The notes under the pieces: model-generated
What the model saw: the letters and a program-made list of their open reading frames with translations, nothing else
Told to the model about the DNA's origin: nothing
Database searches by the model: none
DNA from: Takakia lepidozioides
Taxonomy: Eukaryota > Plantae > Bryophyta
Length of the DNA: 64,000 nucleotides
Assembly: GCA_030704615.1 (NCBI GenBank)
Contig: CM060733.1
Location: 32,054,001-32,118,000, forward strand
Direction: 5' to 3'
Position numbers and translations under genes: made by a program
In this document: positions 3,645 through 51,088 of the stretch, piece by piece
Layout of the letters: every line of letters begins with the position of its first letter
Position numbering within the stretch: position 1 is the stretch's first letter

Positions 3645-4280
3645 GACAGGCCTTTCTTCCATGCCAAAATGCCTTATATGATGCATATCTTGGGGCAACT
3701 GTACATGGTGTAGAATGAAGTTGTAGTCTGTCTTGTCATGCCCAAAGTGGGTCACTTGGTTGCATGTTTGGAGTCTGATTAACTGCATGCTGGTCCAGCA
3801 AGATTCCTGTGTACACAGGTCTTGAATCTGTACAATGGCAGGCTGCTCTTACCTACCCAGAAGGCCTTGCACGATGCACGTCTTGGGATACTTACAATTG
3901 GCCAAATGTGTAGCTGCAATATGTTTTGTCATGCCCAAGGAGTTTACTTGGTTGCATGCTTGAAATCTGATTAATTGCAGGTTGGTCCTTCAAGGTACTT
4001 GCATGACCATATCCTGAATCTGTAGTAGAACAGGTTGTTCTTACCTACCCAAGAAGCCTTGCATGATGCATGTCTTGGGGTACCTACAAATGGCAAAGAG
4101 TGAAGCCGCAATATGTGTTGTCATGCCCAAGAAGATTACGTGGTTGCATGTTTGAAATCTGGTAAATTGCAAGCTGGTCCTTCAAGGTGCTTGTATGAAC
4201 ATACCTTGAATCTGTAGCAGGACAGGCTGTTCTTACCTACCCAAGGAGCCTTGCATGGTGCATGTCTTGGGTTACTTACA
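3645..4280. repeat. Degenerate tandem repeat, 192-bp unit, about 3.3 copies
   Basis: ACCTACCC anchor at 3851, 4043 and 4235 with conserved flanking blocks. Confidence 0.8.
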
Positions 4281-4575
4281 GGAATTTGAACATGCTGTAG
4301 CAATCTGATTTTTCAGCACACAAAGATGCTTGCTTATATGCTTGTCTTGTTGTCATGACTTGCACATAAACAAACCCCGCCCTCCCACCCTGTTTTATCA
4401 TGAATGATTGGGTGAAATCAATTGGGAAGTCATGACAAGAATGGAAGTGTTAGATGGTGCCCTGTTTATGGGCTGTTTATGTCTTTAATTGACAATGACC
4501 CTACTGGGTCTTGTCCATGTCTTGACATGACATGAGTATCTTCCCTATCCCTCTCTCTTTTTAACTTTTTCTGCA

Positions 4576-5571: not shown

Positions 5572-7786
5572 TTGCATGACAGGTGCCAGCCTGTGGGGAA
5601 AGAAAAGAAGTCCCCTGCCCCAAAGAAAGGGGCGGACAATCCGTTTGCTCTGCCGGCACGTGTGACGTGCCAGGGCGTCTCACGGTTAACCAACCCCATC
5701 GATAGCCGCAGCCGGAGGGCTCGTCTGCCCCCCGAGGCCAGTACCCCCCCTCTTGTCCACATCTTGGATACGCCAGGGGCCGGCTCAGCCAGCTCTCCTA
5801 TTCGGGAGGTTGTTGCTGAGCCGGATGCTCAGTTGAGCACACCCTCGGCTACCAAGAGGGGTGAAATGTACCTTGGCAAGCATATCACCCGTTCGGGGGC
5901 CCGGTATGGGCAACTTTTGGATGTCACCCCCATAGCGACCCCTTCCTCCGCAGCAAAGGCTGCACTTGCCCAGGCCCAACGTCAGGTTCAAGGGCCTTTG
6001 ACAGCCTCCGTTGCTAGCCCATTGTTGTCGATGAGGGAGGAGGAGACGAGGAGGGCCAATGAAGTGGCCGAGATAGCGAAGCGCCTCGAAGAAGTCAAGC
6101 TAGGTGAGGGCTTCTACCCTGATACGCATTTGGGGAGGGGGGGGGGAGGAGGAGGTATGGGCCGGTTTGGAGTGGCCTAGCCGATCAGCGACGTCGCCCC
6201 TTGAGCCTGAGTAGTCAGCAAAGAAGGGCCTGGACTACGGGGCGCCGCCGCCGGCTATGCTCCACATCTGGAATCTACTTCTAGTGGCGCTCCGGGAGGG
6301 GATAGAGCGGGCACATCCAGCAACGGGGACTCCTGCCACATCGGGTGACACCGGGGGCGAGTCGGACAAGCTTGCAAAGGTACAAGTGTCGCACTTTGTT
6401 CCATGTTTTATCCTTTCCTTTGCATGCATGATTTTCTTTGTTGTTTGTTTCTTTTTTTGAATTTGGAGGGGTTATTTGTCTTGAGGAGGCAACAACATAG
6501 CTGGCCTCATTGGTGCAGTCCAGTGGGGTTGCCAATGAGGGAGAGCATGTGGTGTTCATGAAGGACCCGAACACCAAAGGTAAGAAGAAGAGGCCTCGAC
6601 CTCCCGAGATCCCCTTTTACCATCAATGAAGGGGTTGCCGAGGAGAGAGAGAGAACGGAGAGGGAGAAGGAGAGAGAGAGGAAGTAGCGGGGATGGGGAA
6701 TGAGATGGTCGTGGAGAAGGGGAAGGAAAAGAAGAAGAAGAAGAAGAAGTCCCATGGAGAGGAAGGGGTGAGTGTGCATGCGGGGGAGGGCAGTGGGGTA
6801 ACAAAGGAGCAGGGAATGAGGCTACAAAGAAGGAAGAGGGTGGGAAGAAGAACATGCCCTTGGCGATACAGGACGTGGAGTTGGCAAAGATCGTGGTGCC
6901 ACCGGTGGAGGTGAATCGCCATGGTGACCCTTGCGGTGCGTTTTGGGAGGCTATGAAGAAGCCAGCCTTCGAACTCGCATTGAGGTGGTTCCCTTTGCAC
7001 ATCGAGTGGGCTGATCAGCACTTTGGCGCGAAGCGGGCGTATGCCCGTGAGTTAGACCGCCGGTTTCCGGGCAATTGGAGTGACACAAGGGTGATGGAGA
7101 TGGTGGGGCGAAACTTGAAGGACAGGAGGTACCGTGCCAGATAGATCATTCGGAGGGCAATGGAAAAGGGGGCCATACCCAAACCACCTTATGGAATTAC
7201 ACAGGTTGGCAAATCCTGAATCATGTCACCTTCCATTTGTCGCATGTGCATTAATGAGGTAGATTCGATGCAACATATGTGTGTAATTCACTAATTGTTG
7301 GGGGGGGGGCATAGGTATCGTGGGATGCACTCATTGCGGGAGAGACTGATGCCGCAAACAAGGCCAAATTTGACCGGGCACGCGAAGCAACAATAGTCCG
7401 CCTTGACAAGCACGAATCCACACACAAGTGGGGCGCCGGCGGATCCAAGGGTTTTATCTTGCGATTTGTAAATCGTACTTCCCTATGGATTTTGTTATAT
7501 CTTCTTTCTGGCTTCATCATCGCGAAGAACTGACTTTAATTTGTGGCATGTGTAGCAACGCGCGTTTGAGAGGAAGCCATCTCCGGTAGAGTACAACTAC
7601 GCCAAGGAGCATGGTTGGCAATCCCTCATGAAGAACATGGCCAACACAGAGGGGATGAGTGCACTACAAGGCACTAGTATGGATGAGGTCGGGGGTAATG
7701 GCCAGGGATTGGATGAGAGCTCTGTGGGACTTAGGGGAACGCCGCCTCATTTAGGTGCTCTTGCAAAGGGCGTGGAGTCATCAGGC
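5572..7786 (+). pseudogene. Degraded CACTA TnpA/Ptta-like (Transposase_24-like) gene; 3' end continues at 26386-26436 after the retroelement
   Basis: Segments ELALRWFP..RRFPGNWSD..NLKDRRYR, SWDALIAGETDAANKAKFDRAREA..THKWGAGGSKGF; removing 7787-26385 restores GVESSG|SSDSSESFTEDEDEYD*; CACTA terminus at 27129. Confidence 0.55.
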
Positions 7787-7873
7787 TGTCGTGCGCATAC
7801 ATATCGCTACACAACTACATCGCTGTCCAAACCACACCACACATATATGCACAATAAAGTAGTCTGCCACAAT
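7787..7873 (-). repeat. Repeat A, terminal copy (87 bp)
   Basis: Matches 8228-8314 with one mismatch. Confidence 0.95.
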
Positions 7874-7876
7874 AAG

Positions 7877-8225
7877 TGATAGAAAAGCTAAGCACACACT
7901 GTTGACATAAAACATGACAACCAAAACCATCACTCTTTAGAATAGAAGTCGAGCCAGGGGCACCCCAAGCTATGGGGACTCCACCCCACAACAACCTACA
8001 CTCCCATCATAAGCACACTCAGTCCTAAACGATGCAGGAGCTCAGTCGCGCAGGCTCAACTCGAGAGAGATGAGCTGCGCGACTGCCGCTCTCGTGAAGA
8101 TAAGACGGTTCAGGTGTCAAACTAAACTTGACACCTGATTTAACACTTGACCTAAATCCAAGTGTTAAATACAAATAACTAGCTTTATTCTAGTTGTTTT
8201 CACACTGTGCTTATTTAACTTGACA
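7877..8225 (-). repeat. Repeat B, 3' copy (LTR-like, TG...CA)
   Basis: Matches 26154-26381 apart from extra 97-bp and 24-bp segments and a few substitutions. Confidence 0.95.
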
Positions 8226-8227
8226 GC

Positions 8228-8314
8228 TGTCGTGTGCATACATATCGCTACACAACTACATCGCTGTCCAAACCACACCACACATATATGCACAATAAAG
8301 TAGTCTGCCACAAT
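8228..8314 (-). repeat. Repeat A, internal copy, directly after the putative PPT
   Basis: Direct repeat of 7787-7873; sense-strand AGGGGGGCG at 8315-8323 precedes it. Confidence 0.95.
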
Positions 8315-8572
8315 CGCCCCCCTAGCTGGTGGATAGGTCCCTCTACCTCCAGATAGCTACAAGATGTAATAGCCACAGCCGTACTAAGTCCTCTATCACT
8401 GTCCCTATTGCACTCAAACCCTATAGACCAAGAGGCCGGGTACAAGAGTAACCCCATCGTTAGTCGCCGTCTTGCAATCTGTGAACTTGAGCCAGGACCT
8501 CGTGTGTTCAAGGTCTCCTAGTAGCTGGGCCTTGCGTTTCTTGTTAGCCTTCCATGGTTGTATCCACTCCCA

Positions 8573-10684
8573 CTATCCAATGCAATGTGGACATAACTAA
8601 TCCCCATCCGGAACCATCTCAAGAGGTGGAGTCAAGCATCCTATATGCCAACCTCTAGAGCATCGATCACACACCAGCATGGTGGCTGCCCCTCTAGCAG
8701 ACCCACACAACATGCACCTCAAGCCTGCAGATACCACTGCCAAGTTTGGGTCTATCCTGCCATCGACATTCGGAAGGTGACATGGCGCACAATTACGCAC
8801 ATGGTCCTTCCAAGTTATGCCATCCCGACCCTCCAAGACCAAGATGCCTGAGGGCAAGACCTCTCGAACCCTCAAAATAACACGTCCTGTAGTCACATCC
8901 AGGGTCGTAGGAGCAGTCTGCTGCAGATAGACATAGTCACCAGGGTTGAATCTCCGAACCCCAGGACGATAGCCCCCACCACGTATGGTAGCATACCTCA
9001 ACGTATCACGGTGTTGTGCAATGGCAAGGTTCTCGAAAGCCATGGGCATGACTCTCTTGAACAACTCTGCACGCTGCTCACATGCACGTGCCCACACGTC
9101 CGGATCGTCAAGGTTAAGAACTGTAGCAGCTTCTATGCGAATGGATGTAGGCAAATCCGGCTCTCGGCCAAAGAGAAGAAAGTATGGTGAGAAGGAGGCA
9201 AGTGATGCTTGCTTGCTGAACCTGTAGCCCATGGCTAACCAGGGTAACTGAAGGTCCCAATCTCCTAGGTGTCCCTTCTGCAAGCCATACTTGCGCAAAC
9301 CCCTCTTTACTGTCTGAACAACTCTCTCTGCCAAGCCATCAGCCTCAGGATGATCCCGAGAAGTGGTGCGGTGGTCTATCAAGGCCTTGTCACACAAAGC
9401 CTGAAACTCCCCCAAGAACTCTCTCCCTTGGTCCATGAGTACCTCAGCTGGAGCACCGAATCGGCTAAGCACACAATCCAAGAATGCATATGCAGCTCCC
9501 TCACTAGCCTTATCAGGCAATGGAACCAATTCAATCCACTTGGAGAAGTGCTCCACCATCACCAACACGTACTTGTTGTGGCGCATGGTTAGTGGCAACG
9601 GCCCTGCAAAGTCAAGACTCCACCTGTAGCCCAATCCCATGATCGGAAGAGGGTGCAATTGTGGAGTAGGGGCATTGAATGAAGCACGCACCCTGTCACA
9701 CACCATGTACCTAGCCACAAATTGTTGCACCTCTGTGTGCATACCACGCCACCAATACTGCCCCTGCAGTAGACTATGAGTGCGTCGCACCCCAAAATGC
9801 CCCAACTTCTCATGGGCATGCCGCACTAACCGTGCCCGCTGTGTTGGGTGAGGCACAATCCTCACTCGACCATCCTCCCACACTCGGAGCAGGTGTGTCC
9901 CCTCCCACTTGAACCTCTTGGCTCGTTGTAGGATCCGATCCCTCTCCTTGGCAGTCAAAGTGGCTGGAGTGTCTCCAGTGCAGAGGTAGTCCAACACAAC
10001 TGAATCCTCATGTATATCTTTGGCGCCACCTTGTTCATTGCTGGCCTCAGGGTCCTCAGACACTTGATCTGCAGTCATCCTTGTTGCAGGTCCAACCTGG
10101 CCTTCCGCTGCCAAGATACACAGAAATGCAGATGCATGCCATCCGGGCACCATCTCCTCGTCCGTCTCACCATGCCACCGAGCTCCAGTGTCATCTTGAT
10201 GGCTCGTGCATGGATTGCGACTCAACCCATCTGCATTGCGATTGACCAAACCCGGTCGATGCACCACCTGAAAGTCATACTCTTGAAGGATGAGTGCCCA
10301 CCGTGCAAGCTTCCCCGTAAGCTTGTCTGACTCCATCAACCATTTGAGTGGTTGGTGATCCGTGACAAGGGTGAAGAGATTGCCGTATAGATAGCACCTG
10401 AAGTGTGCCACGGCCCACACTGCAGCTAAGCATTCTCCCTCATATGAGCTATACTTAGACTCTGCAGCGTTGTTCGAGCGGCTAGCATAAGCCACTACGA
10501 ACTCTCTTCCCTCATCATCCACCTGTGTGAGCACCGCTCCAAGCCCCAGCATGCTCCAATCTGTATGCAGCTGAAAAGGACGCCCCCTAATAGGTCGTCT
10601 CAAGATGGGCGCCGAGGTCAACCTTGCCTTGAGCTCTTGAAAAGCTTGTTCTTGCTCATCTTCCCACTGCCACTCCTGGTCCAC
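8573..10684 (-). pseudogene. Pol C-terminal part: RNase H, DDE integrase and PHD finger
   Basis: LHTDWS..GLGAVLTQ, TDHQPL, HEKLGHFG, WSLDFAGP, DQGREF, ADGLAERVVQ; PHD CMLC..LVCDRCSRGWHIGCLTPPL..PDGD*LCPHC with W replaced by stop. Confidence 0.92.
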
Positions 10685-10698
10685 CTTGGTCAGCTTGG

Positions 10699-11513
10699 TT
10701 AGAGCCTTTGCAATGGCACTAAATCCCTTAACCGTCTGTAATAGTTTGCTAACCCCATGAAAGCTTGAACTCGGCTCACATCCGTGGGGCGTGGAACCTG
10801 TGCAATGGACTCTACCTTAATCAGCTGTACCCCCAATCCTCCAGGATATATCATGTGACCCAGATACTCAATCTGGTTGTGGAAAAACTTGCACTTGCCC
10901 GGATGTAACTTCAATCCGTGCGTCCTCAAGCGCTCAAATACCCCCTGAAGATGTCTCTCATGCTCCTCCACCGTAGCACTAAAGATTATGATGTCATCTA
11001 TATAGCACCGAGCAAACTCCACCCCTGCTAGAATCCTGTCCATGACTCTTTGAAACTCAGCGGGAGCATTTTTAAGCCCAAATGGTAAGAACCGCCACTG
11101 GTATAGGCAATCCTTCTCGTGCTCATTGATCCCCCAGAATGCCGTCTTTTGTTTATCCGCCTCTTTGATCGGCAACTGGTGATATCCGGATCGTAAATCC
11201 AAAGTGCTAAAGACCTTAGCATGCCCAATGGCATCAAAGATCTCCTCTGGTGTGGGCATGGCACATCCTTCTTGGTTGGCATCACTGTGGCTGAAGCATA
11301 CTCTCCACCAGAGAGCTCCACCAAACCTGCCTCCCAGAGATCTTGAGTCCTCATCTGAATCAAAGACCTCTCCATGTCACTGTATCTATAGGGTCTCCGA
11401 AAGATTGGCGTGTCAGTGGCCAACTCAATACGGATCTCTTGACCCTTCAATGCTCCCAAGTCCTTCAAACTGAAGGCAAAGCAATTCCTGTAAGCCTTCA
11501 GGAACCGCCGCAT
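10699..11513 (-). pseudogene. Reverse transcriptase of the outer element (internal deletion and frameshifts)
   Basis: [28 protein letters not shown]; the RMCxDYR segment is missing near 11265. Confidence 0.92.
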
Positions 11514-11795
11514 ACGTCGTCTCTCTCCTCCGGTGACAATGGGTCCAATGTCAGGCTCCCAATTATCCTCCGTAACTGCAACCTTAAGTCCAGTGGGCTT
11601 AGAGGTAGAGGACGCGTCCCGTGGTTGCTATGCTGCAATTTCTTGAGCAGTACTCCCTTCCTGCTCAGTCAATGACAAGGCCTCATCCTGCCCCATCATC
11701 TCATCATTGAGAACCTCCTCAACCCGAGAAGAATCCCCAACCTCATCCATCACAGCTGCCTTGGCTGCCAACTCCCTCTGAACCTCGAGCACCTC

Positions 11796-13028
11796 TCACG
11801 TGTACCATGGATGTCTACACCCCGTGGTCCTCACCGGCTCGCCCCCACTCACTGCCTGTACCGTCTCGGTAGGCCGAGAGACCATGAAGGGGAGTGCACT
11901 CCGCACTCTATGTTGCTCAGCCATAGCCAAGCTGATAATCCAGGTCAAGCAATTGAGATCCATTGCTTGCCCCAACACCTGACGCCGTGATGCCTCAGAA
12001 AGAGAAGGCACCGTCGTGGTCCCAGTGGAAAACCCCATAGCCCGCTCTCGCTCGTCGGCATTAGGCTCCACTAACTGCTGCAACTGAGCATCCCACAGGA
12101 GGCCAGGTCCACCATCCCGAAAAGCATGGGATCCTGGGAAGCTGAGCAGTATAGGTAATGCTGCTCGTGGTTGACCCACCCTGTTGACCACTGCCAAAGG
12201 CGAACGGTCATCATGTCTCACACGTTGAGACTGCCTCCCTGTGTCCAAAATGCTGTCCACTATGAGGTGTGTTGGCCGCTGCACCCCATCAAATGCACGC
12301 TTGAGTAGTGCGGGTGGCATCAAGTTAGTCCACCATAGCCGTGGACGATGAGCCCGTGATCCCACTGCAGCTGCATCCAGCAGCACTGCTGACCCAAGCC
12401 ACGACCGGACTTGATGCACACTGGCCATCACCCTGGCCCGAGAATCGCCCATCAGTGGCACATTCTCCAAGATGTATGCTGGCGATACAGCTTGATGAAG
12501 CTGCAAGTGGCGCAAAATCCGCACCATCTCCCAAAACAGACCCGTCCTCGAGTCTCGCAATACATTACCATGCCCGACTGATGAATGCCCTTGGCAGGGC
12601 CAACCTGCCACTACCAGATCAATGGAGCCAACCTGCTCCAAATCTGGCGCCCCCAACAACGAAATGTCTGCTGGCAAGGCTTGTTGGTATCCACGAACTG
12701 CAGGCACTGGCAACAAAGCAGAGTACTGCTGTACCAACTGAGCAACATGGCGCAGTGAGACACGTCGTGCAGTCTCATCCCTCTCCACATATAGGTAACG
12801 CCTTACCCGCATACCTGCCTGTAGCACAGCAGCCAATCCGGTGGTGATCCCGCCAAACAAGTCCAGAAGGCAAATACCTTCATCCGGATACTGCCACACA
12901 ATAGGTGTGGTATCCAATGGTGACAACTGAGGTGGTCCTGGTGCAATACCCGCACTCTCCTCCTCTCCTGACGGTACAAAAGCCTCTACCCAGGCTTGTT
13001 GCACCCGTCGATCAGCAACCTGCTGCAA
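11796..13028 (-). CDS. DNMT3-like DNA (cytosine-5)-methyltransferase domain within Pol
   Basis: Motif I LLDLFGGITTG, II YVERD, IV DLVVAGWPCQ, VI YILENV, VIII DAAAVGSRAHRPRLWWTNL, IX ERERAMGF, X RRQVLGQAM; same frame as protease and RT. Confidence 0.92.
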   Translation of the reverse strand: MQQVADRRVQQAWVEAFVPSGEEESAGIAPGPPQLSPLDTTPIVWQYPDEGICLLDLFGGITTGLAAVLQAGMRVRRYLYVERDETARRVSLRHVAQLVQQYSALLPVPAVRGYQQALPADISLLGAPDLEQVGSIDLVVAGWPCQGHSSVGHGNVLRDSRTGLFWEMVRILRHLQLHQAVSPAYILENVPLMGDSRARVMASVHQVRSWLGSAVLLDAAAVGSRAHRPRLWWTNLMPPALLKRAFDGVQRPTHLIVDSILDTGRQSQRVRHDDRSPLAVVNRVGQPRAALPILLSFPGSHAFRDGGPGLLWDAQLQQLVEPNADERERAMGFSTGTTTVPSLSEASRRQVLGQAMDLNCLTWIISLAMAEQHRVRSALPFMVSRPTETVQAVSGGEPVRTTGCRHPWYT

Positions 13029-13043
13029 ATCCTTGCTCGTACC

Positions 13044-13595
13044 TCACAATGGAGTGTGAGCAACCATGGCAGGCAACTGCGCCATACCATGCATGTCATC
13101 CTGCTCTGCTGGAGGTGGCACATCCTCTGCATGGGCATTGCCTTCCAGTAACTCTCCAGGCCAACTAACTGCAGCTGTAAAGGTAACTAGTGTTGGCATC
13201 TTGCCCCGCTGGGCAGCCGCTATACCCCCAATGAATGTCACAGGGAGCTGTGCGCGGCGACCATCGCTTGACTGCCATCCAGGCCTGTAGGATGCTGACT
13301 CCTCCCAAAAGTCCAGGGTGAAGCCCATGGGATATAACACTGCCCCACCAACGAGGACATCGTAAGAGATTGCGTCTGTCACAATGGCATTGGCTCGCAT
13401 CACTGAGCCATCTCTAGGATGATCCGGCTGCAGTCTAATGGCCAACTGATGCCGTGTCATGCCCCGAGCCTGCTCTGATCCTCCCAGAGATGTCTGTATC
13501 TGGAAAGGACAATGCTCCATATCCGCCTCCATGAGGCCCAAACCTGCAATAGCAGCTCTGCCCAACATCAATGGCTGAGCTCCCGAGTCCAACAA
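13044..13595 (-). CDS. Retrotransposon aspartic protease
   Basis: LDSGA active site and YDVLVGG motif. Confidence 0.85.
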   Translation of the reverse strand: MLDSGAQPLMLGRAAIAGLGLMEADMEHCPFQIQTSLGGSEQARGMTRHQLAIRLQPDHPRDGSVMRANAIVTDAISYDVLVGGAVLYPMGFTLDFWEESASYRPGWQSSDGRRAQLPVTFIGGIAAAQRGKMPTLVTFTAAVSWPGELLEGNAHAEDVPPPAEQDDMHGMAQLPAMVAHTPL

Positions 13596-15553
13596 CGTAG
13601 TGGCCGGTACTTCTTGCCTGCCTGTCTACTCAAAGAGAAAATGTCATCCTGGTTGTCTAACAAGACAACTACAGGTGTCACCATGGCGCGCTCAAAGGCT
13701 GGCCTAGCTGGCAGCTCCGTCAACCTAGCAGCTGCAACTTGCCATGGCGCAGCCGTGGCAGTCTTGACCCTCAAATCTGAGGATCTCTCTGCCACTACAC
13801 CTTCCAGTAACTCCGCAGAAGATGAAGTGACCTCCCCACTCTCACAGAGTGTTGCTGCTAGTCTGAACACTGCAGCTGGTCTTACCCCCGGCGTCGCAAT
13901 CATGGTTGCCGAGAACAGTGGGGCTTGACACACAGAGGTGGTTGCCCCCAACAACACACCGGCTGCACTAGCCTTGGCAGCAGGTGTCAGTGCTGCACGT
14001 GTAGCTCTCCCCAATGGCATAGAAACCTCCACCTCGGTAACAGTCGGGCGAGAACTAGGTGCCATGGATGGTGTTGACACTGTCTCCGCCAAGGTGAATG
14101 ATTGAGGCAGCCTCGCCTGACGGCTTGCCTCCCCACGTTGTGGATCCAACTCCACCTCTGCACCTCGTGGCTCAGGAACTCGTGCTGCTCCTCGAGTCAC
14201 GGCTGTAGTAGACTCCACCTGCTCTAGTGGTAGTGCTGCTCCGCACATGAATCCCATGCCTCCCATATCTCCTCCCTCAGGAACAAGAGGTGGACCATCC
14301 CGCCTGGGAGCCGATACCGCCTGAGCTGTAGCCATGGCAGCGAGCCTCTGCTCTAGCTGCTGAAGCCGGTTGGCCATGCCTTGGTCAACACCCTGACCTC
14401 CGCGTCCTTGGCCATGTTGAGCTTGCCCTTGGCCTGCACCTCGTGCCCGACCACCTCGTCCTCTCTGGGCTGGTCCACCTCGCCCCCGGCCACCATTGTT
14501 CCCTTGGAACTGGCCTGGGCGCAACTCAGGATGCAAGTCATAACACTGGGCATCTCCATGCCCATACTTGCCACAACGCCCACACTGCAACTGTGCAGGC
14601 TGTGTTTGTGCTGGCCTTTTGCCACTCTCTGGGCAATCTTTCTTGACATGGGGTCCTCCACATGTCCAACATATCACCCCTGGTTGCTGTTGGCCTGCAA
14701 AAGATGCCACGGGCCTCTGCACCTGAGGTCCCCTGTAAGCTCCATGGAACTTGGGTTGGGAAACCTTTCCCCCCTGACCACGCTGTTGGGCAGTCCCTTG
14801 TGCCTGTGGGCTGGCAGCTGCGCCTCGTGCAGACATGTCCTTGCCAAACCCAATGGTAACAACTCGCTCCTCCACCATGTTGAGCTCAATCCGCTCAGCC
14901 AACAGAAACACATCTGCTAATGTGGGTTAGGCTGCTTGTAACAGGGTTGCATCCCGCACCCTTCTCCTGAGCTCCTTGTCCAAAATTCCATACCAGAACT
15001 GGATTGCCTCAGTAACCCCTTGGGTCACACTTATCAAGCGTCTCATACGAGTGTAGGCCTCTCGCAAGCTCTCACTGGGTTTGCGCTGGAAGTCTTGCAA
15101 ACTTCGCAGCTTCTCTGTCCGTACACCTTGGTAGTTCCTCCGCAACTCCTGAAAGAACTCCATCACAGGGTTGAATCTAGGCACATGTGTTGTAGTCGTG
15201 GCAGGAGGAGTAGTAGCACATTTTGAACTGGTACCACCTGTAGAAGTACCGGCACTACTTGTTCCACTACTAGTGCTGGCAGTGGGAGATATTGGTACTG
15301 ATGCAGCTACTGGTCGCGTCGTGCCTCGAGTAATGGAGACGTAGTCAGGTGACCAATACATCCTCCACTCCTCAATCTCTGCTTCATGTCCTCGCCTGAA
15401 CTCGTGGTAATCGTCCATAGGCGGGCCTTCCAAATGCTGGAACAGTCCCTTCCACGCCATGAATGGGGGAATAGCTGTGGGTTGCGCATCTGCTGCAAAT
15501 CACACCAGCTGTCGAACTCCTGGATAAAGTCATCCAACTCGATTGTGCCCATA
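13568..15553 (-). pseudogene. gag of the outer element, 3' part (frameshifted), with zinc knuckles
   Basis: GTIELDDFIQEFDSWCD, FQRKPSESLREAYTRM, CWTCGGPHVKKDC, CGRCGKYGHGDAQC. Confidence 0.85.
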
Positions 15554-16277
15554 TGTCGCACACCTCAGTTCGGTAAACTCCCCTTCAAGTCATAGTTACT
15601 CGCTTTGATGCGCGCGCCTGACTCCCAACCTGGCCGCCGGGCCAACTTGGAGTTTCGGCTGCTCACCGGGACATAACGGTCCCCTTCCGCTTCCCTCTAA
15701 ACCCTCCACCTATTTGGGACTAGGAGAATTCCCTTTGGTAGATGGCAGTCCGGAACAGCTCCCCACTCTTTGGTCGCTTTCCGGCTCGCTCGCTTACTCA
15801 CTAGTTTTTGGTCACCAACGGGCTTGCACCGTTCTCGGGGTTACTACTCCCTATATATACTTCTGTAGCTGTCTGCGGGGGTTTCATAACCAGCCATGCC
15901 ATTTTATGGCGAACCACCACGAAAACCCTCGACTCCCGGTGGTGAGTCGCGGTGAGTCTTGGCCCACTCACCGCGGCCCCAATGGACCGTGATGAGTCCC
16001 AAGACTCCCCACGACTCCCACCTCGAGGTCTCCACCCCATGGTGAGTCCTATGCCACCCCCACTAAGTCCCACTAAGCTACCACCACCCCTTGTGGAGCC
16101 ACCTCCACCGCAACCCGGTGTGCGGGGCTCCACCTAGTGAGCGCCTCCGCCTCCTTGAGTGCCTTGGGCACTCAAGGGTGCTTCAGCCCCCCATACCTAT
16201 CGCTGCCGCTGCCCCCACCACAGGGGCAGCCCCTCATGTGTCCCGACCCCCTGCCCTCAAGGCAAAGGGCCGCGACA
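15554..16277 (-). repeat. 3' LTR of the nested chromovirus
   Basis: Direct repeat of 21801-22524. Confidence 0.97.
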
Positions 16278-17183
16278 CACACCCCTACCAACAGGGAGTC
16301 GATGTCCTCATCGACTTGTCCATTTTGTAGAAACGAACATCCAAGTTGTGGCGTCCCACATCAAGGAGTTTGTTTCCGTACCATGGCGTCCCATGGCAAA
16401 GAACCAAACCCCACACTTGACTCCACTCTCCACTAGCTAGTTCGGCCGACTTCCTCCAAGTCCCGGCCAAGGGTGGAGCCTCTCCAGCTCCTCCCAGTGC
16501 ACTCTTCTTGGCCTACTTCAAGGCCAAGGAACGATCCTCCCCGAGGATCGAATCGCCTTACTGCAACAACATTGCTTGCGATCGCTCATGATGCCGCTTT
16601 TGGCATCACCTTGAGCAAGGGTTCACCTGGAACCCTCTTTGACTAGGAAGATAACCTTGAACCAACCGTGCGCCCCAATCACTACAATTGGGTCCGCCTT
16701 GGAATGCTGGCCTGAGGTACGGGAACACGCCGAAGCCGCACTACGACTTCGTCCCGAGGCTACACGATTATAGTACGTGAACGGAAGCACGTAGCTTCCG
16801 CGTTAGCCCGCACTACAAGGCAACCCCCTCGGTAGCGCAGTTATAGTACGCGCACGCGCCAGGTGCGCACTAGCACTTGAACTCCCAAATAAGGCGCAAG
16901 TTTCCTTGCCCCTTGGATGGGAGTCACCCGATTTCGGCACTGCGCAAACACACGATTAACCCAATTTACCTCTCCCACTTTTGTAAGCTAGCATGCATTC
17001 TACACACCAGCCAACCACACCATGCATCACCATTCCAAACACAATAGGACGCACAATATTTGGAACCCATTTCCTTTATCACAAATTTTTGTACAATACA
17101 AGTTTTTGCAATCGGATTCCTGAGCTAGCTAAACCGGGCTAAGCATGCATTTCCTCCCCCACGCTCCAAGGTTGATGTCCCCA

Positions 17184-20100
17184 TCAACGCTTCTTCCGCT
17201 TTTGAGGTCGCCCTTCGAACGCTGCAACTGCCTCGGATGCGTTTCCCATTTCTGAGGCACGCACCCAAGATGCCTCCACAAGATGATAGCCCTTCCATTT
17301 GACGAGATACTCCGTTTCTCGGTTCTTGAACCTCCTCGACTTAAGTATTGCCTCCACCTCGTACTCGGGTTCATTTTCATGATCCAACAGCATAGGTGGC
17401 GGACGCAACACTTGCTGCCGATTCGGACGTGCTTCATCTTTGAAGTAAGGCTTCAAAAGGGAGACATGGAATACTGGGTGCACCTTGCTGTTTGCTGGCA
17501 GCTCCAATTCATACACATCCTCATTCATAACCCTCCGAATGCGAAAGGGACCCGCATACGGAGGTACGAACTTCGGACTCATTTCCGGAGGTAGTCGAAA
17601 ATTCTTGATGTTCAACCAGACCTCTGTGCCTGCCTCAAACTTCACTTCCCTCCGCTTCCGATTCGCCTGCCTTTCATACCGTTTCCTAGCTTTGGCAATG
17701 TTGTACTTTGCGAGCTTCAACAAACGCTCGCGTTCTTCCAGTACCGCCGCTACTGCCGGTTCCTCAACGTCCTGGGCGGCCCAACTTGTCGGCACCAGAG
17801 GTGCTTTTCCATAGACCAACACAAAAGGGGAAACTCCCGTCGCGGAGTGTTCTGTGTTATTATAACAGAACTCTGCCGCGTCTAAGTGTTCCATCCAGTC
17901 TGATTGGTCTGCCGACACGTAATTCCGCAAGAATTGCTTCACTACGGAATTCACTCTTTCCGTTTGGCCGTCCGTCGTAGGTCGGAAGGCGGTGCTCATC
18001 TTCAGCCTCGTCCCCATCTTCTTCCAAAGTGCTCTCCAGAATTTACTCGTAAACTTTGGGTCGCGGTCCGAGACAATATCCTTCGGGACTCCATGATGCT
18101 TTAAGACGTGGGCGAAGTAAAGTCGCCCTGTCTCCTGCGCAGTTGCCGTCTCCTTGGTGGGGATGAAATGGGCCATTTTACTGAACCTATCTACCACCAC
18201 CATGATTGCATCGAATCCTTTTGACAGCGGCATAGCAGTCATGAAATCCATCGAGACGCTTTCCCAAGTCCCCTCTGGAATCGGCAAGGGTTGTAACAGC
18301 CCCGCTTGCTTTTTATACTCGCTCCGGTTTTGTTGGCATGTGGTGCATGTTTTACATACTCCTCTGCCTCCTCCCTCAGTTTGGGCCAGAAATACTCTTT
18401 CTTCAAGAGTGCCGCAGTGCGCTTGGCTCCACCGTGGCCCGCAAGCGGGCTATCATGGCATTCTCTCAAGAGACTATCCCTGATCCCTCCCTTTGGCACA
18501 TAGAGACGTTTTTGCTTATACCGGAGCAGTCCGTTTTGCAAGTGGAACTGCGATTTAACCCCCATTCTCAAGTTCTGCATCACGCACTTTGCCAGCTCAT
18601 CCTTCCGGCAAGCCTTCCGGATCTTCCTTTGGAGCGCCGTCTCGCCCTTGTACACCAACAAGAGCTGCTGCTTTCTACTTAAAGCATCGGCCACCACATT
18701 GTCCCGTCCCGGTTTGTACTGGATATCCACGTCGAACACTGCCAAAGTATCTTGCCACCTAAGTTGTTTTGGGGACAACTTGGGCTGCGTGGCAAAATAC
18801 TTCACCGTGACATTGTCCGTGAACACCTTCACTGGGTTGGAACCAACATAGTGGCGCCAGAGTTCAAGGCAATGTACCACCGCCTTCATCTCTTTTTCGT
18901 GCGTCGGCCACCGTCGCTCCACTTCATTCAGTTTCTTACTTTCGTAAGCCACTGGACGTCCATCTTGCATAAGTACACCCCCAATTGCGAAGTCCGATGC
19001 ATCTGTATGAATCTCAAACGGACGATCGAACTCCGGGATTTTTAAGACTGGAGCTTCCGTCATCCGCTGCTTCAATTCAGCAAAAGCTTGGCCACAAAAT
19101 GTGTTCCATACCCAGACTTTGGATTTACACAGAAGGTCCGACAGCGGCCCCGCGATCTTGGCGAAATTTCTCACATACTTCCGGTAATAGGAGGCGAGTC
19201 CTAGGAAGGATCGCACTCCCGGGACCGAAGTCGGAGGCTCCCAGTCCAAGATCGCCCTCACCTTTCTGTCATCCATTTTGATCCCATCCTGTGTAATCAC
19301 GTGCCCCAAGAACTCCACTTTTGTGACCCCGAATTCGCACTTTGAAGCTTTGGCATACAGCTTCCCTTCTCGCAATTTTTGGAACACCCTTTTGAGGTGC
19401 TCCAGGTGCTCCTCCTTTGTTTTCGAGTACACCAAGATGTCGTCGATGTACACGATCACAAAGTCATCCAACCACTCCTGGAAAAGGCTGTTCATCAGCG
19501 TGCTAAATGTCGCTGGTGCATTGGTGAGCCCAAAAGGCATCACCAAGAACTCATATGAACCATACCTTGTCCTGCACGCGGTCTTCTCCTCATCTCCTTC
19601 CGCCACCCGAATTTGGTGATAGCCGGAGCGCAAGTCGATCCGGCTGAAATACTTCGCTCCTGCCAACCGATCGAAGAGGTCGTCGATCCTTGGCAAAGGG
19701 TACCGGTTTTTGATAGTCACCTTATTCAGAGCCCTGTAATCGACACACATCCGCAGCGTCCCATCCTTCTTGTCTGCAAATAGCACCGGGGCTCCGTAAG
19801 GTGACTTACTCGGCCGGATGTACCCCTTTGACATTAGATCTTTGAGCTGAGTCTTCAGCTCGACCAACTCTTTGTGGCTCAACCGGTAGGGCGCCTTGGC
19901 AGGCGGTTCCGATCCCGGTATCACCTCAATTTTGTGGTCAACTCCTCTTCGCGGTGGCAAGCCGCTTGGTAAATCCTCCGGCATCACATCCTGGTATTTC
20001 TCCAAAATCCCCTTGATCCAATCTGGGCTCGGCTCCCCATCGCCTTCTCCTTTCACTTCTCTAATGTAAAGCAAAAACTGGGACTCGTGTGTCTCCTCCA

Positions 20101-21808
20101 CGGCCCACTCCTTTGCTGATAGAAGGTTTATTCGCCCTCCCACGGATTTGGGCGTTTCCGACACTCGTAAAACCTCGCCACCATTCCCACATGGCAGCGT
20201 GACTACTCTCTTGCGGCCATCTATGACCGCTCCGGATTTGCTCAAAAAGGTCATTCCCAAAATGAGATCCACTCCATCGATCTCGCAGATAGTGAAGTTC
20301 TCACGTCCCTCCCAACTCCCCAGTTGAAGAGGAACATCAAACGCCAACCTTGTCGCCAACTGAGGTTCTCCTTTGGCAGAGCGCACCTCAATAGAGGCCC
20401 CCACGTCACTTGTCGGGAGTCCCAACTTTCGCGCCGCCGCCGGCGTCATGAAGGAGTGCGACGCTCCTGTGTCCACCAACAACGACACATTAGTTCCGGA
20501 TATTATCCCATCCACGAACAATAACTGACTCCCTTTTCGTAAGGCGCCAGTTTCCTGATACAACTCACAAGAAAATTTGCCTACCTTGCAAGTCCTGGCG
20601 ACCACCGCTTCCACCAAGCGACTGATGGTATCTTCCGACAGCTCCGTGGTCGCCCGAGTCATGTTCAATTGCCGGGGCTTCGTGCACTTCTTGGCCATGT
20701 GCCCGGGCTCCCCGCAATTGAAACACACTCCATCAAAGGTCGCCTTCTGTCCGCCATAAGTCGCTCCACCCGCTTTTCCTTTCGAAGCACCGGGTGCCGC
20801 CTTGACGTGTGAAGGACCTCCCTTCGATTTCCACGTGCCATTTTCGCCGCGTGGCCTATCCCACTTCTTTTCCGGTCGGAAGGAGTCACCTTCCCGCCGG
20901 GTCTTCTTGTGGTTCAGCTCCGTACGGCCTTGTCTCTCACCCCTAGGGACATCCGAGAAACATTCAGCTCTCTCAATTGCCTCGTTCAAAGTCTTGGGTG
21001 GCTTCTCCTCCAACTTCCGCCTAGCCCATGGGGCCAGTCCCGCCACAAAGTTGAAGACCATTTCTGGTTCTGCCATGTCCGCGACTTCGAGCAACAGCAC
21101 ATTGAAAGCCTGGACATACCCCCGAATGTCATCTGTTTGCTTCAAATTCCTCATCTTGTCCCGGGCAAGCCAGGATGCGTTGAGGGGCACAAACTGTCTC
21201 TTCATCAATTCCTTGAACTCACTCCAGTTCAAGGTTTCCGGGCTTGGGCCTCGGTCGTGAAGGCGTTTCTGCCACCATTGTTGAGCATAGCCCCTCAAAT
21301 AGGTGGGAGCCACTTCCACCCGATCCTCGTCACTCAACTTGGCCGCCCGGAAGTACTGCTCTAGCTCCAGGAGCCAGGTGTTGAGTGCCTTCCGGTTTCG
21401 AACGCCCTCGAAGGTGCCGGGTTCCTTAGGCTTCACCTTAAACTTTGCCTTGGTGGAAGTGGCATTAGCCGCCTTCAACACGTCTTTCAACGTCCCGCCA
21501 AACTGCGCCAACAACCCTTCCCAAAAGGCTGCCGGCATGGGAGGCATCTCTTGGCTTGTCGGAGCTCTCAAAGATTCCTCGGGCTCCGACTCCTCGGATT
21601 CCTCCCGCTCCTGAGCGGCCTCGTTTTCGGAAACATTAATCGCTTCCTCAAACGGCCGCCTCGGTGACACGTCGCCCCCATCGGGCTCACCGGGATCATC
21701 ATCTTTTGGGCCGTTCCGCTTTCGCTTCGGCTTGCCCGACCCCATGATGAGGCCAATCCCAAGGACGATCGCGTACTGAACTCTAGGCTCTGATACCAAA
21801 TGTCGCAC
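17184..21808 (-). CDS. gag-pol polyprotein (Gag, CCHC, PR, RT, RH, INT, chromodomain); single 1-nt frameshift near 18350
   Basis: [63 protein letters not shown]; restoring one A in the AAAA run gives [11 protein letters not shown]. Confidence 0.95.
21787..21798 (-). promoter_or_regulatory. Primer binding site, tRNA-iMet
   Basis: TGGTATCAGAGC 2 nt downstream of the 5' LTR. Confidence 0.92.
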
Positions 21809-22524
21809 ACCTCAGTTCGGTAAACTCCCCTTCAAGTCATAGTTACTCGCTTTGATGCGCGCGCCTGACTCCCAACCTGGCCGCCGGGCCAACTTGGAGT
21901 TTCGGCTGCTCACCGGGACATAACGGTCCCCTTCCGCTTCCCTCTAAACCCTCCACCTATTTGGGACTAGGAGAATTCCCTTTGGTAGATGGCAGTCCGG
22001 AACAGCTCCCCACTCTTTGGTCGCTTTCCGGCTCGCTCGCTTACTCACTAGTTTTTGGTCACCAACGGGCTTGCACCGTTCTCGGGGTTACTACTCCCTA
22101 TATATACTTCTGTAGCTGTCTGCGGGGGTTTCATAACCAGCCATGCCATTTTATGGCGAACCACCACGAAAACCCTCGACTCCCGGTGGTGAGTCGCGGT
22201 GAGTCTTGGCCCACTCACCGCGGCCCCAATGGACCGTGATGAGTCCCAAGACTCCCCACGACTCCCACCTCGAGGTCTCCACCCCATGGTGAGTCCTATG
22301 CCACCCCCACTAAGTCCCACTAAGCTACCACCACCCCTTGTGGAGCCACCTCCACCGCAACCCGGTGTGCGGGGCTCCACCTAGTGAGCGCCTCCGCCTC
22401 CTTGAGTGCCTTGGGCACTCAAGGGTGCTTCAGCCCCCCATACCTATCGCTGCCGCTGCCCCCACCACAGGGGCAGCCCCTCATGTGTCCCGACCCCCTG
22501 CCCTCAAGGCAAAGGGCCGCGACA
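21801..22524 (-). repeat. 5' LTR of the nested chromovirus
   Basis: Direct repeat of 15554-16277. Confidence 0.97.
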
Positions 22525-22529
22525 CCATA

Positions 22530-22795
22530 GCTCCAGAGTACCTACGAGGCCCCTTGGTAGCTCCATACATCTCCTCCATGTCGTCCCACAACAATGGCGA
22601 ATGAAACTGCACACCTGTTGATGAAGCCTCCGAGTCTGTGTCTGACTCTGCACTAGTTGAGGGTGGAGGTGAAGGTGGTTTGAAACGAACACCTCGTCTG
22701 GTGAACCCACTCTCACTGCTACTGCCTGTAGCCGTACTCCCCTCAAAACCCTTGGGTAACTCCGTGATGACACTCACAATGTGCACCTCCCCCAC
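22530..22795 (-). pseudogene. gag of the outer element, 5' part
   Basis: ...KGPRRYSGAM joins in frame to GTIELDDF after removing the nested element. Confidence 0.8.
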
Positions 22796-23338
22796 GTGAC
22801 ACTATAGGGCTCTAGTACTAATTCTAATAGTGACACGGGTGGGCACTTGTTGCAGTTTAAGGGTCATATCCCAATGGCTCAGGGCACCTGCACCTGCATC
22901 CACCGCAAGAACTCCTATGGTTGGCTGGTCATCAACCCAGCCTCACCATAGAAGAAACACTGGTGGTCTTGTTGGTCATCACTCCAGCCTCACCACCGAC
23001 AGCATACTCTAGGATTGACCGGTGATCAAATCCGGCCTAATCCCTATGAAAGCAAGCGCCCACACAAAACCAACATGGCGCACAGTCAAGCATGCAGGTG
23101 TTGGGGGGGATCCAAACACAAGAAATCAAAACATCAACACCCCCACACCAAAATCCAGCTGCAATGATCTTGCAGAATAGCCCAGCCCAAAACCCCGGAC
23201 TGACTGGCCTCCACCAAGAGAGGCTTTGGCAACTACAAGTACAAGGTAATGAAAATAGTACAGAGATGGAGGGGAAGAATAGAAGCCCGACCAAGCAAGA
23301 TCTAATCCTGATCTATGCTATCAACTGTCAGACTTCTC

Positions 23339-24061
23339 TCAAAGTGCCTCGCTCTGCATGATGGTAAGGTGTAGGAATACATCTATGTCTAGAAACCTGC
23401 CACTAACCTTGTCCCAAGCTACAGTAGCTTGCTCTAACCAACCCTCCTCCTCTTTCTGCCAGGTAGAGACAAAGCAACACTCTGCTATCTCCCGCTCACG
23501 GAACACTAAAGAAAACAAAGGTAGGGTCTGATAGTCTCTCAACTCGAAAGCTTTGAGACGGTTGCGGGTGTCCTCATTGCGAATGACTGCATCTCCTTCA
23601 AGCAGAACAAACTTGTCCTCGCTAATGAACCCCCGCTCGTGGTTGCCTTGTGCAGAGCGTGTCCGGCTGCAATGCTGTCTAATTGCACAAACTTCAGTAG
23701 CTCCTGCTCCTCTGCTCCAGTACACCATGGCCTTGTGGCTAAACACCTTGGTACCCGGGGCTGTCTTTGGCTGTGTTCCAAGCCTAGCTTTCACCCACTT
23801 TGGTATTTCACCTACAGCTGCAAAACTGCTGGCTCCAACAAAGTTCTGACTGTCCAAAGCGATATTGAGGCCCTCAACGCCAACTACAGCAGTCTGTTGT
23901 GTACTGCTAATGCCTGACTCCCAGTATGCAATCAACTCGTCCAACTGTTCTCCACTCAAATCAGTCTGAGTTCCTTGGGAAACATAAATCTTGTCCCCTT
24001 GGGTGTACAGGCTAAGAGAAGAGACCTGCCCTTCAATTACGTCCTCATTTCCCCCAGCCAT
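23339..24061 (-). CDS. Extra 240-aa ORF upstream of gag, unknown function
   Basis: Open ATG-to-stop frame with globular composition inside the outer element. Confidence 0.55.
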   Translation of the reverse strand: MAGGNEDVIEGQVSSLSLYTQGDKIYVSQGTQTDLSGEQLDELIAYWESGISSTQQTAVVGVEGLNIALDSQNFVGASSFAAVGEIPKWVKARLGTQPKTAPGTKVFSHKAMVYWSRGAGATEVCAIRQHCSRTRSAQGNHERGFISEDKFVLLEGDAVIRNEDTRNRLKAFELRDYQTLPLFSLVFREREIAECCFVSTWQKEEEGWLEQATVAWDKVSGRFLDIDVFLHLTIMQSEAL

Positions 24062-24389
24062 ACAAGGAGGACATCCACAAATTTGTCTCTCATATAGACC
24101 AGCACAGGTTCTAGAAACAGAATTGTGGATTTTTCATGGCACACTCACACTCTAAAAATTCCATAGATTTTTAGCAGAGTCCCAAAAACAAAAACTGAGT
24201 CAAACGGAGCTCATTTGACAAAGATATGATCAACCAACCTCTAAATCATTTGAATTAGATCAAAAAGGTTTTTTTTTTTCTTAAACACCAAAACGTTCTC
24301 GCCATTAAAAACTGTTCCCAAGTCACCTACGAGTTCCCAACACGTCCATGTAGTTTTCACAGATTCCCTGGATTTCACCTACAGGTGTT

Positions 24390-24600
24390 TCAAACACTGG
24401 TGAACTGCTCTGCAACGCGACCTGATTTCAGCATCTCATCTTGGTTCTGGGTGAGAAGCTTCACTCGCTCGATGGGAGCCGCAGCAGTCTTAGACACAGC
24501 TGCAAAGACTCCACCCATAAGAAAGTTGATCATAAACCCTACGACACCCTTTTCCGCAGGTGCAGGAACAAAGTTCATAGGAGCGAGATTAGAAGGTACG
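24390..24600 (-). pseudogene. Captured fragment of mitochondrial ADP/ATP carrier
   Basis: [42 protein letters not shown]. Confidence 0.9.
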
Positions 24601-24744
24601 AGGCTCTGGCCTCCTCTTCACTGCTGCTGCTGACAGATTTGTGGTAGCTCTGTGTTGTAGAAGAAGGCATAACGGTGCTGTGTTACGGGCTGTTGGGTTG
24701 CATCACCTCGGACATGGGGTCGTGCGTCTACTAATGGGAGGATC

Positions 24745-25630
24745 AGTTCGAGCAACCTTGGCCAACTCTTTTCGGTCCTGAGAAGCAACCAGACTGCACA
24801 CTGCTCTTGGAGGTAATACTTCCTTTCCTATCTCTATCAACAAACCCACCATGTTGCGCATTTGTCTGTACAGAAAACCCGTGCCTTCCACTTCAAACTG
24901 CAATTGCGGACCCGTTGCAAGAACATTGAATTGAAGGATCTTTCTGATCGGAGGCCGCAGTGGTGGGTCGTTTGAAGTATTGGCGAATGCTGAAAAATCG
25001 TGCTCACCAACAAAGTAAGAGGCAGCTTCCTGCATGGCATGAGCATTGATCTCATGCCTTATGTGATGGGCATAAGAGCACTGGAAGGGGTCCATAACTG
25101 GAGCAACATAGGCCCTGTATTGATATATCTTTCTAAGGGCAGAGAATCGGGCATGAAATTCTGGTTGCACTGCGGACACCTCTCGTACTCGAATGTCATA
25201 GGGCAGAATGCCATTCAGGGATGTATGCAAGAATTGTAACTGGTCAAAGCAATATGGAGTCACAAAATGAGCCACCTGACCCCAGGCATGAACACCAGCA
25301 TCTGTGCGGCCTGCAGCGCAAAGAAGCAGCTGATCACGTGTGCATCTGGTCACCTTGGCCAGTGCATCCTCTACCAAGTACTGCACTGTCACACCGTTTG
25401 CCCTTGACTACAGTCGCCACCCTGAGTAATTGGTGCCATCATAGGAGATCACCAACCTCCATTTCCATGTGGGTTTGCTCTCCACGCCGACTTCAGTCTG
25501 AGTGAGCTCAACGCCACTATGAGGAGTCTTGAAGGTTAAAAGCCCGTTGTCTGGCTTCGCACTCTTAGCACGATTCATCTGACCACTGCGACAGCTATAG
25601 GGAGTTCTAAGTTCCTTGTAAACCCAACCC
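24745..25630 (-). pseudogene. Captured intronless tRNA pseudouridine synthase (TruA family) copy, C-terminally truncated
   Basis: KWRLVISYDGTNYSGW, AGRTDAGVHAWGQVAHF, FHARFSA, GEHDFSAF, GTGFLYRQMRNMVG; one internal stop. Confidence 0.9.
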
Positions 25631-25639
25631 CCATCGTTG

Positions 25640-25735
25640 TGCCTTATCACGATGGGCCCGTTCTTGTAGGGACAAATGGAACTCTTAACATTTATACCAT
25701 CTACTACGGTACTTTCACTGCTGCCCAGCTAGTAC
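25640..25735 (+). pseudogene. Captured antisense fragment of a PHI-1/EXORDIUM-like gene
   Basis: YHDGPVLVG..LNIYTIYYGTFT resembles the PHI-1 N-terminal motif. Confidence 0.65.
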
Positions 25736-26139
25736 CCCTTATGCACAGCCCACATAATCCTTCTCCCCCAACAAGCCCACTGGCCTGCTCAACACAAAGC
25801 CCAGCAAAGGCCCTCAACGAGAAGACCCCCGGCGCCACTGACACCACGCCCCCGCAGCCTCTCCATACGCCTGGGCCAGTTACCGGATCACCACACGCAC
25901 CTCGCACCTCGCCAGTAGCTTCACTGGCGCGACTCCTCAAGCTTCTCCAACATGCTGCGATTCTGGATGGGCTACTCTTTGTTTGAGCAGCATGCTGTGG
26001 ACGCCGAGCTACCACTCATTGAAGAAGAACGCTCTGGATTCGAACTGCAAAGCATTGGCCTCTGGCGACCTTCTCTACTATAATAGTGCTTAAAAACAAA
26101 AACATCATATCTAGCCTAGCACTGGAAAACTAGATAGAA

Positions 26140-26153
26140 TCATCTCTCTCGAG
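26140..26153 (-). promoter_or_regulatory. Putative self-priming PBS of the outer element
   Basis: 26140-26155 is a perfect 16-bp inverted repeat of 26238-26253 inside the 5' repeat; no TGG tRNA-type PBS. Confidence 0.65.
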
Positions 26154-26381
26154 TGATAGAAAAGCTAAGCACACACTGTTGACACAAAACATGACAACCA
26201 AAACCATCACTCTTTAGAATAGAAGTCGAGCCAGGGGCACTCGAGAGAGATGAGCTGCGCGACTGCCGCTCTCGTGAAGATAAGACGGTTCAGATTTAAC
26301 ACTTGACCTAAATCCAAGTGTTAAATACTAATAACTAGCTTTATTCTAGTTGTTTTCACACTGTGCTTATTTAACTTGACA
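26154..26381 (-). repeat. Repeat B, 5' copy (LTR-like)
   Basis: Homologous to 7877-8225; followed on the plus strand by TSD AGGC. Confidence 0.95.
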
Positions 26382-26649
26382 AGGCTCATCGGATAGCTCT
26401 GAGTCCTTCACTGAGGATGAGGATGAGTATGACTAGTCCTAGTCCATGTAAGTACCAGGGTCAGCCTACTGAACCCTTGTGAGCTTTTCAGCTCATTTCC
26501 AGTAAATATATTTCCATCTTTCCATCTTCCATCTTATTCATGTGTCGCACCGTCCTCACCCTCGATTCATGCTTGCTCAATTGTGTACATGCTAAATCAG
26601 AGAAATAGAACTGTAAAGTCTCCCATTATTATTTTATTAAAAAAACGAC

Positions 26650-50288: not shown

Positions 50289-50428
50289 CTGAAAAATAGG
50301 AGATAAATCCCAACCCACCAAAGCGCTCAGTGAGTAAGATGCAAGTAGAACAGAATGAAAAAAACATAGAATGAAATGGCTCTGAGAACTGCTCCAAGGA
50401 CCTTCAGGACCACACGACTGCTCCGGAT

Positions 50429-51054: not shown

Positions 51055-51088
51055 AGGACATTATCAATTCTAATCAGGGACACTATAA

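Follow-up and report, generated by a model that had tools for sequence, protein, structure and literature searches.

Split direct repeats in a gypsy clade with a DDE integrase suggest insertion from sites inside the long terminal repeat

How does a retrotransposon with a DDE integrase come to carry split direct repeats, the arrangement of tyrosine-recombinase retroelements? The question is raised by a gypsy-type element of the bryophyte Takakia lepidozioides, located on the minus strand at positions 7787–26381 of a 64,000-nt stretch of DNA (GenBank assembly GCA_030704615.1, contig CM060733.1, positions 32,054,001–32,118,000; hereafter the window, whose coordinates are used throughout). In sense orientation the element reads B5–CT–primer site–coding region–polypurine tract (PPT)–A1–GC–B3–CTTAT–A2, where A and B are repeated segments, and is flanked by the 4-bp target duplication AGGC. 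An initial annotation had described this order and duplication, and we found every feature in place. It had further proposed that A, GC, and B together form the true long terminal repeat (LTR) and that a circularized cDNA had been opened at an internal palindrome. Our analysis points to a related reading that we consider likely: these Ty3/gypsy inserts would end at two sites within the LTR, with the cDNA ends joined and the closed molecule opened at those sites by the DDE integrase.

Results

The window element spans 18,595 bp, 6,971 bp of which belong to a nested chromovirus of ordinary structure (Table 1). Between the primer site and the PPT lie, in order, gag, protease, DNA methyltransferase, reverse transcriptase (RT), RNase H, a D(34)E integrase, and a PHD finger. 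The A/B junction, GACAGCTGTC (8222–8231), is the palindrome GACA-GC-TGTC with its spacer at 8227–8226 on the minus strand; the outer ends of the insert are its two halves, as the initial annotation had noted. There is one difference between A1 and A2 over 87 sites, and there are two between B5 and B3 over 228 aligned sites, which indicates that the insertion is young. B5 lacks 24 nt and 97 nt that B3 retains: the 24-nt stretch (8113–8136 in B3) sits within an 11-bp hairpin of B3, and the 97-nt deletion begins directly after the self-primer described below. Neither deletion appears among the joints listed in the sequencing runs searched, which does not imply that they are private to this copy.

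To place this copy among its relatives, we used the best 80 of 498 loci from a partial metagenome scan—mostly from two families—and located A and B by self-comparison and mapping. Two further families, at ~70% and ~50% protein identity and with largely unalignable LTRs, have the same layout. Among the 17 loci with both ends, nine run B...A-B-A and eight run B...A; A precedes the 5′ B in none of them, nor in the window, and neither a canonical A-B...A-B nor a mirror-image B-A-B...A form occurs. The AB...AB or B...B relatives that the initial annotation had named as the outcome speaking against it are thus missing from these both-end loci. The two complete LTRs expected at the ends of a Ty3/gypsy insert were not found, and it is the proteins rather than the termini that assign the family to gypsy. 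After removal of seven duplicate insertions, 42 distinct 3′ ends comprised 22 A-B-A and 20 single-A ends; the other loci were truncated at a contig end or by another insertion, or came from families without an A/B match. One locus (L075) is a solo B-A with a target duplication. For the window's own family, the runs that contain it yield 28 and 22 contigs that extend past the A end; their flanks agree at only ~0.4, and two contigs run from the PPT through A into flank. Contig depths are sums and served neither as copy numbers nor to compare B...A with A-B-A forms; low depth at the B/A junction was likewise not used as evidence. The A-B-primer order of L004 and L076, considered as a canonical element or circle, probably reflects collapsed assemblies and was not counted. 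The layout is therefore confirmed as family-wide rather than a one-off.

Target duplications could be scored for nine B...A-B-A loci, seven B...A loci, L075, and the window. Of these 18, 10 carry an exact 4-bp duplication and 16 match within one mismatch, against shuffled means of 0.67 and 1.45 and maxima of 5 and 8 in 20,000 shuffles. Four of the six single mismatches are G-to-A changes directly after the terminal CA, a pattern that would match methylation decay. A 5-bp duplication misfits most scored copies, and a target preference for GC was rejected: among the exact duplications, only that of the window starts with the spacer letters. One B...A copy, L037 (3279, 12331), lies inside another repeat and may carry a decayed longer duplication.

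The A/B site takes the form CA-NN-TG, with a 2-nt spacer, in all 24 rows compared (23 distinct copies). Its spacer is GC in nine rows, AC in nine, AT in three, and AA, TC, or GT in one each. The same motif follows the PPT in L004 (GT), L043 (GC), and L076 (GC), down to 40% identity. The palindrome emphasized by the initial annotation therefore holds for the window but is not constant; the spacer is GT in the intact L004 and often AC elsewhere. To judge from these alignments, conservation extends to two attachment sites that face each other but not to a perfect palindrome.

The cDNA ends can be placed from the two priming sites. A begins directly after the G-tract in all families. The site after B5, annotated initially as a primer-binding site (PBS), is a primer site but not of the TGG type: it lacks the TGG start and is an exact complement of 15–17 nt inside B (15 nt in the window). 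The sequence of this self-primer/site pair differs in each of four families (the window's and those of L012, L028/L048, and L004) while complementarity is kept. TATAAA lies ~32 nt upstream of the self-primer in 12 of 12 copies of one family and ~26–28 nt upstream in two of five copies of another, and the predicted RNA 5′ region folds with the self-primer pairing (z −3.5 in the window, −4.8 in L004). On this sequence evidence, the PBS is a self-priming site rather than a tRNA primer site. Under the standard LTR scheme, the positions of PPT and primer site put the cDNA ends at the start of A and the end of B, which supports the LTR composition proposed initially; A-NN-B is the best reading of the true LTR.

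The B/A joint varies where the A/B site is constant in form. It falls into five length classes among 15 copies of one family and three among seven copies of another, and the window's own family shows three forms among four junctions. Primer-side bases are kept in L053 and PPT-side bases in L048 and L014; primer retention in Tf1 offers a point of comparison. The initial decomposition of CTTAT into the CT following B, one extra T, and the AT preceding A is borne out, and the variation among copies supports the expectation that linear cDNA ends would be joined anew in each cycle.

The protein evidence places the element with gypsy. Pfam gives, in order, C5 methyltransferase, RT, RNase H, HHCC zinc finger, integrase core, and PHD, and the closest solved protein is Ty3 Gag-Pol (E 4e-40). 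Both the order protease–RT–RNase H–integrase and the combination of an HHCC zinc finger with a DDE integrase are those of Ty3/gypsy. The element also shares with that group a primer site (here self rather than tRNA), a PPT, TG...CA ends, and a target duplication in the 4–6 bp range. The catalytic D, D, and E are present in 39, 40, and 39 of 40 aligned proteins, and 34 rather than 35 residues separate the second D from E in all 39 scorable rows. Tyrosine recombinase had no Pfam match in window frames of at least 70 codons outside the nested element, nor in L052 and L036 frames of at least 80 codons. The co-occurrence of split repeats with a DDE integrase noted initially is thus upheld, to which our analysis adds self-priming, the finding that about half of the copies are B...A, and the absence of the mirror permutation. 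Pfam finds no chromodomain after the outer integrase and a PHD finger there instead; the gag/protease region has no Pfam match in the window, and L036 gives a weak aspartyl-protease match.

In an integrase-core tree of 39 rows, the relatives group with 100/100 support against three outgroup integrases, too few to give a placement among gypsy lineages. Named integrase relatives come from Riccia, Calypogeia, Marchantia, Klebsormidium, Closterium, Coleochaete, Tetrabaena, and Volvox; a search of viral contigs yielded no relative. One clade member, P0151 (cluster of P0005), is labelled uncultured cyanobacterium and is probably a binning contaminant. The methyltransferase domain is found in most long relatives, and that of the window (11796–13043) retains its catalytic motifs. 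PMC6338049, in the part available, describes tracheophyte retrotransposons as lacking methyltransferase domains and does not address bryophytes.

The window copy itself is defective. Its polyprotein is broken into seven frames or segments, compared with two (1369 and 1047 codons) in the intact relative L004, and the copy probably moved in trans. The nested chromovirus that interrupts its gag is very young: its 724-nt LTRs are without mismatch, and its gag-pol carries a chromodomain. The outer and nested integrase cores share 30% identity.

The initial annotation had also held that removing the element restores a host open reading frame. The empty-site frame across AGGC is open but extends only 17 codons beyond the junction. 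The left flank has a summed contig depth of 41,000–70,000 in run X1, against ~50–170 for the individual contigs listed, and this high repetition makes a host gene at the insertion site doubtful; the flank is probably another repeat rather than a single-copy gene. The insertion-site sequence (7500–7750) is highly repeated in runs X1 and X4.

The 5′ region of the element contains captured pieces of host cDNA. The TruA piece is closest to mosses (72% identity to Sphagnum), which makes a bryophyte host probable, and the mitochondrial-carrier fragment (24393–24617) is one that we take to be ADP/ATP carrier-like. The interval holding TruA, the carrier pieces, and a 264-codon frame (23339–25976) has no tblastx match among the 80 related loci. 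An Atlas match of that frame to TraN (0.90, low recognition 1209) was dismissed as weak.

Elsewhere in the window, positions 41440–45869 carry domains of the long interspersed element (LINE) type (zinc knuckle, endonuclease, RT) in frames on both strands, and an open frame at 53184–53726 has a cupin domain. Tandem arrays occupy 3664–4317 (~192-nt unit), 50406–51072 (~290 nt), and 63106–63786 (~64 nt, with a palindromic unit core). No tRNA gene was found in the 64-kb window.

Table 1. Coordinates of the window element and its flanking duplications
Feature	Position	Strand	Basis or remark
Target-site duplication AGGC, 3′ (A) end	7783..7786	.	Read from sequence
A2, terminal A copy, upstream part of U3; ends CACGACA, the right attachment site	7787..7873	-	1/87 mismatches vs. 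A1
B/A junction CTTAT: CT (U5 end), one extra T, AT (A start)	7872..7876	-	Putative joint of two cDNA ends
B3, internal B copy, 349 nt; rest of U3, R, and U5	7877..8225	-	
Self-primer sequence within B3; putative transcription start	8059..8073	-	
GACA-GC-TGTC, two facing attachment sites with 2-nt spacer, within the 3′ LTR	8222..8231	.	Conserved in relatives
A1, A copy directly 3′ of the PPT, including leading AT	8228..8314	-	A1-GC-B3 is the sole complete LTR
PPT	8315..8327	-	Same place in relatives
RNase H, HHCC zinc finger, integrase core D(34)E, PHD finger	8597..10816	-	Pfam, alignment
RT, split over two frames	10699..11627	-	
C5 cytosine DNA methyltransferase domain	11796..13043	-	PF00145, E 2e-11
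Protease-like and gag regions, interrupted by stops and one frame change	13044..15499	-	Homology to relatives
Nested chromovirus: 724-nt LTRs, TGG-type primer site, 5-bp duplication CCATA	15554..22524	-	
264-codon open frame, origin unassigned	23339..24133	-	No Pfam match
Captured mitochondrial-carrier fragment	24393..24617	-	Mito_carr, E 2e-6
Captured intron-free tRNA pseudouridine synthase (TruA) sequence	24703..25728	-	Best matches are mosses
Self-priming site; pairs over 15 nt with the self-primer in B	26140..26154	-	
B5, terminal B copy, 228 nt; starts TGTCAAG, the left attachment site; self-primer at 26239–26253	26154..26381	-	
Target-site duplication AGGC, 5′ (B) end	26382..26385	.	Read from sequence

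Discussion

The architecture, the 4-bp duplications, the CA-NN-TG ends, the variable B/A junction, and the primer complementarity are seen directly; from them we infer the rest of a replication cycle. Transcription would start ~130–165 nt into B, and the RNA 5′ end would pair with the site behind B and prime the minus strand, as in Tf1. Ordinary LTR reverse transcription would then yield a linear cDNA with A-NN-B at both ends, whose B end would be joined to its A start. At the NN spacer of the 5′ LTR, integrase would nick both strands just after CA and the spacer would be lost; insertion with a 4-bp stagger would then produce B...PPT-A-NN-B-junction-A. Such a B...A-B-A insert would keep promoter, R, and U5 in B5 as well as a full 3′ LTR and could replicate again. 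If one-LTR circles were opened likewise, the result would be B...A copies; these have no 3′ R and would be dead inserts.

Several observations weigh against this cycle. The circle, the transcript end, and the integrase cleavage are each deduced rather than observed directly. A symmetric two-LTR circle predicts both outcomes, yet B-A-B...A was found 0 times against 10 B...A-B-A copies (window included), ~0.001 at even odds. The initial proposal of circularization and opening at the internal site is supported by the permuted ends throughout the family and the variable B/A joint, but not by the absence of its mirror form. The B...A copies could also stem from later A-by-A or B-by-B recombination; the solo B-A with a duplication (L075) indicates that such recombination does occur. 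L037 and L048 (2 of the 18 scored copies) lack a 4-bp duplication, and L073 was too decayed to score. The spacer site is lost in L026, and none was recognised in L044, L064, or L009. No canonical TATA precedes the self-primer in the window's family, and in several old copies the primer match has decayed to the point of scoring no better than shuffles.

The one-sided outcome is what gives force to the leading rival, which dispenses with a closed circle: RT would jump from the finished right end to the left end, recopy A by strand displacement, and stop at the internal site, leaving a branched intermediate whose ends integrase completes. This would explain the lack of B-A-B...A copies as well as junctions in which primer-side bases persist or short overlaps are used. 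It must also forbid the mirror jump by the other strand and is itself deduced, and an insertion at the junction of L014 and deletions at those of L028 and L077 resemble repair joins; we regard it as a serious but unlikely alternative. Insertion from a joined and reopened cDNA remains the reading we prefer. The layout itself matches the split repeats A1-B1-A2-B2 known from PAT and Ngaro (PMC4157794) and invites a different model, in which a full-length transcript regains both its ends by using the A1-B3 junction as template, and the B/A junction passes on from copy to copy. That junction differs between close copies, however, and a PPT directly before A1 with a primer site directly after B5 defines an ordinary LTR; with 4-bp duplications and a DDE integrase present and a recombinase not found, we consider replication of this kind improbable.

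A single rearrangement of an ordinary LTR element, or an error in its assembly, would accord with the damage to the window copy (the B5 deletions and the nested element), for which long-read support was not seen. It is very hard to reconcile with two other families, assembled independently, that show this layout together with target duplications, with the many flanks that adjoin A ends within the window's own family, and with the repeat layout published for Klebsormidium (PMC5890265), and we give it almost no weight.

The closest published counterpart is KnitGypsy-Dnmt3 of Klebsormidium nitens, a gypsy polyprotein with a C5 methyltransferase whose repeat arrangement is called DIRS-like in a figure legend (de Mendoza et al. 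2018, PMC5890265, Fig. 4), and the window element is like it in both respects. Integrases of K. nitens, which may or may not be those of the published KnitGypsy copies, fall in the window clade (100/100, with three outgroup rows only). The main text and text supplements of that paper, as far as available, give no junction, target duplication, priming mode, or mechanism and do not mention PHD (PMC5890265). KnitGypsy-Dnmt3 was reported from K. nitens (PMC5890265), whereas the present set of relatives takes in proteins of liverworts, Coleochaete, Closterium, and chlorophytes. The name KnitGypsy occurs in only one paper within the literature searched. Gypsy elements with a PHD finger are also known from Chlamydomonas reinhardtii—REM1 and Gypsy-7a_cRei, the latter active in laboratory strains and drawn with left and right LTRs that have subparts (PMC9940879, legend)—and are like the window clade in this domain, no more than a lead to possible relatives.

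PAT, TOC1, Kangaroo, and Ngaro are tyrosine-recombinase retroelements with split direct repeats in the order A1...B1-A2-B2 (PMC4157794), PAT and Ngaro being members of the DIRS order; the window element resembles them in these split repeats. Unlike them, the window family has a DDE integrase, a PPT, a self-priming site, and 4-bp duplications, and a recombinase was not found. Like the Tf1/Sushi and Tcn1 chromoviruses, whose primer site is complementary to their own RNA 5′ end (Neumann et al. 2019, PMC6317226), the family appears to self-prime, a likeness that comes from sequence; unlike those elements, which have two full LTRs, its clade carries PHD and methyltransferase domains. The foamy-virus integrase cuts the joined attachment sites of a two-LTR circle junction in vitro (Delelis et al. 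2005, PMC1180852), and cleavage after CA on both strands of joined sites would be similar in the window family. In foamy virus, however, the cut falls where the two cDNA ends meet and brings back the usual linear order (PMC1180852), whereas here the sites would lie inside the LTR, away from that meeting point, and the insert is permuted. The window family has a target duplication, whereas PAT and Ngaro elements are not known to have one.

No description of the mechanism was found in a literature search that left subscription papers, Repbase, and supplementary figures outside its range; the available parts of PMC9210276, PMC6338049, and PMC8557442 hold nothing on it. What emerges is a genuine variant of gypsy replication that spans the clade and has hardly been described, its layout noted once in print and its mechanism proposed here. 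Whether an ancient gypsy clade of the green lineage shifted its attachment sites to mid-LTR, so that circles became the obligate substrate for integration and two-LTR circles give B...A-B-A inserts while one-LTR circles give roughly equal numbers of repeat-less ones, we hold to be evenly balanced.

If the proposed cycle is true, the clade would be a natural case of DDE-integrase insertion through closed or end-joined cDNA, making an old question of retrovirology testable. LTR circles have been described as non-integrating products (PMC7197481, in the part available), and integration via a circle is a route usually held to be a dead end for this element class. Such a cycle would also offer a path by which ordinary LTRs could turn into the split repeats of recombinase elements. 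REXdb was compiled using LTR-FINDER, a program that requires paired LTRs, and the available text of its description does not mention PHD, methyltransferase, or Klebsormidium (PMC6317226). An abundant repeat class of bryophyte and algal genomes has likely been missed or mis-trimmed by such paired-LTR tools, and B...A inserts, without any terminal repeat, would be invisible to LTR finders. With the relatives described here, the range of gypsy elements that carry a methyltransferase widens beyond Klebsormidium to hosts that are likely land plants.

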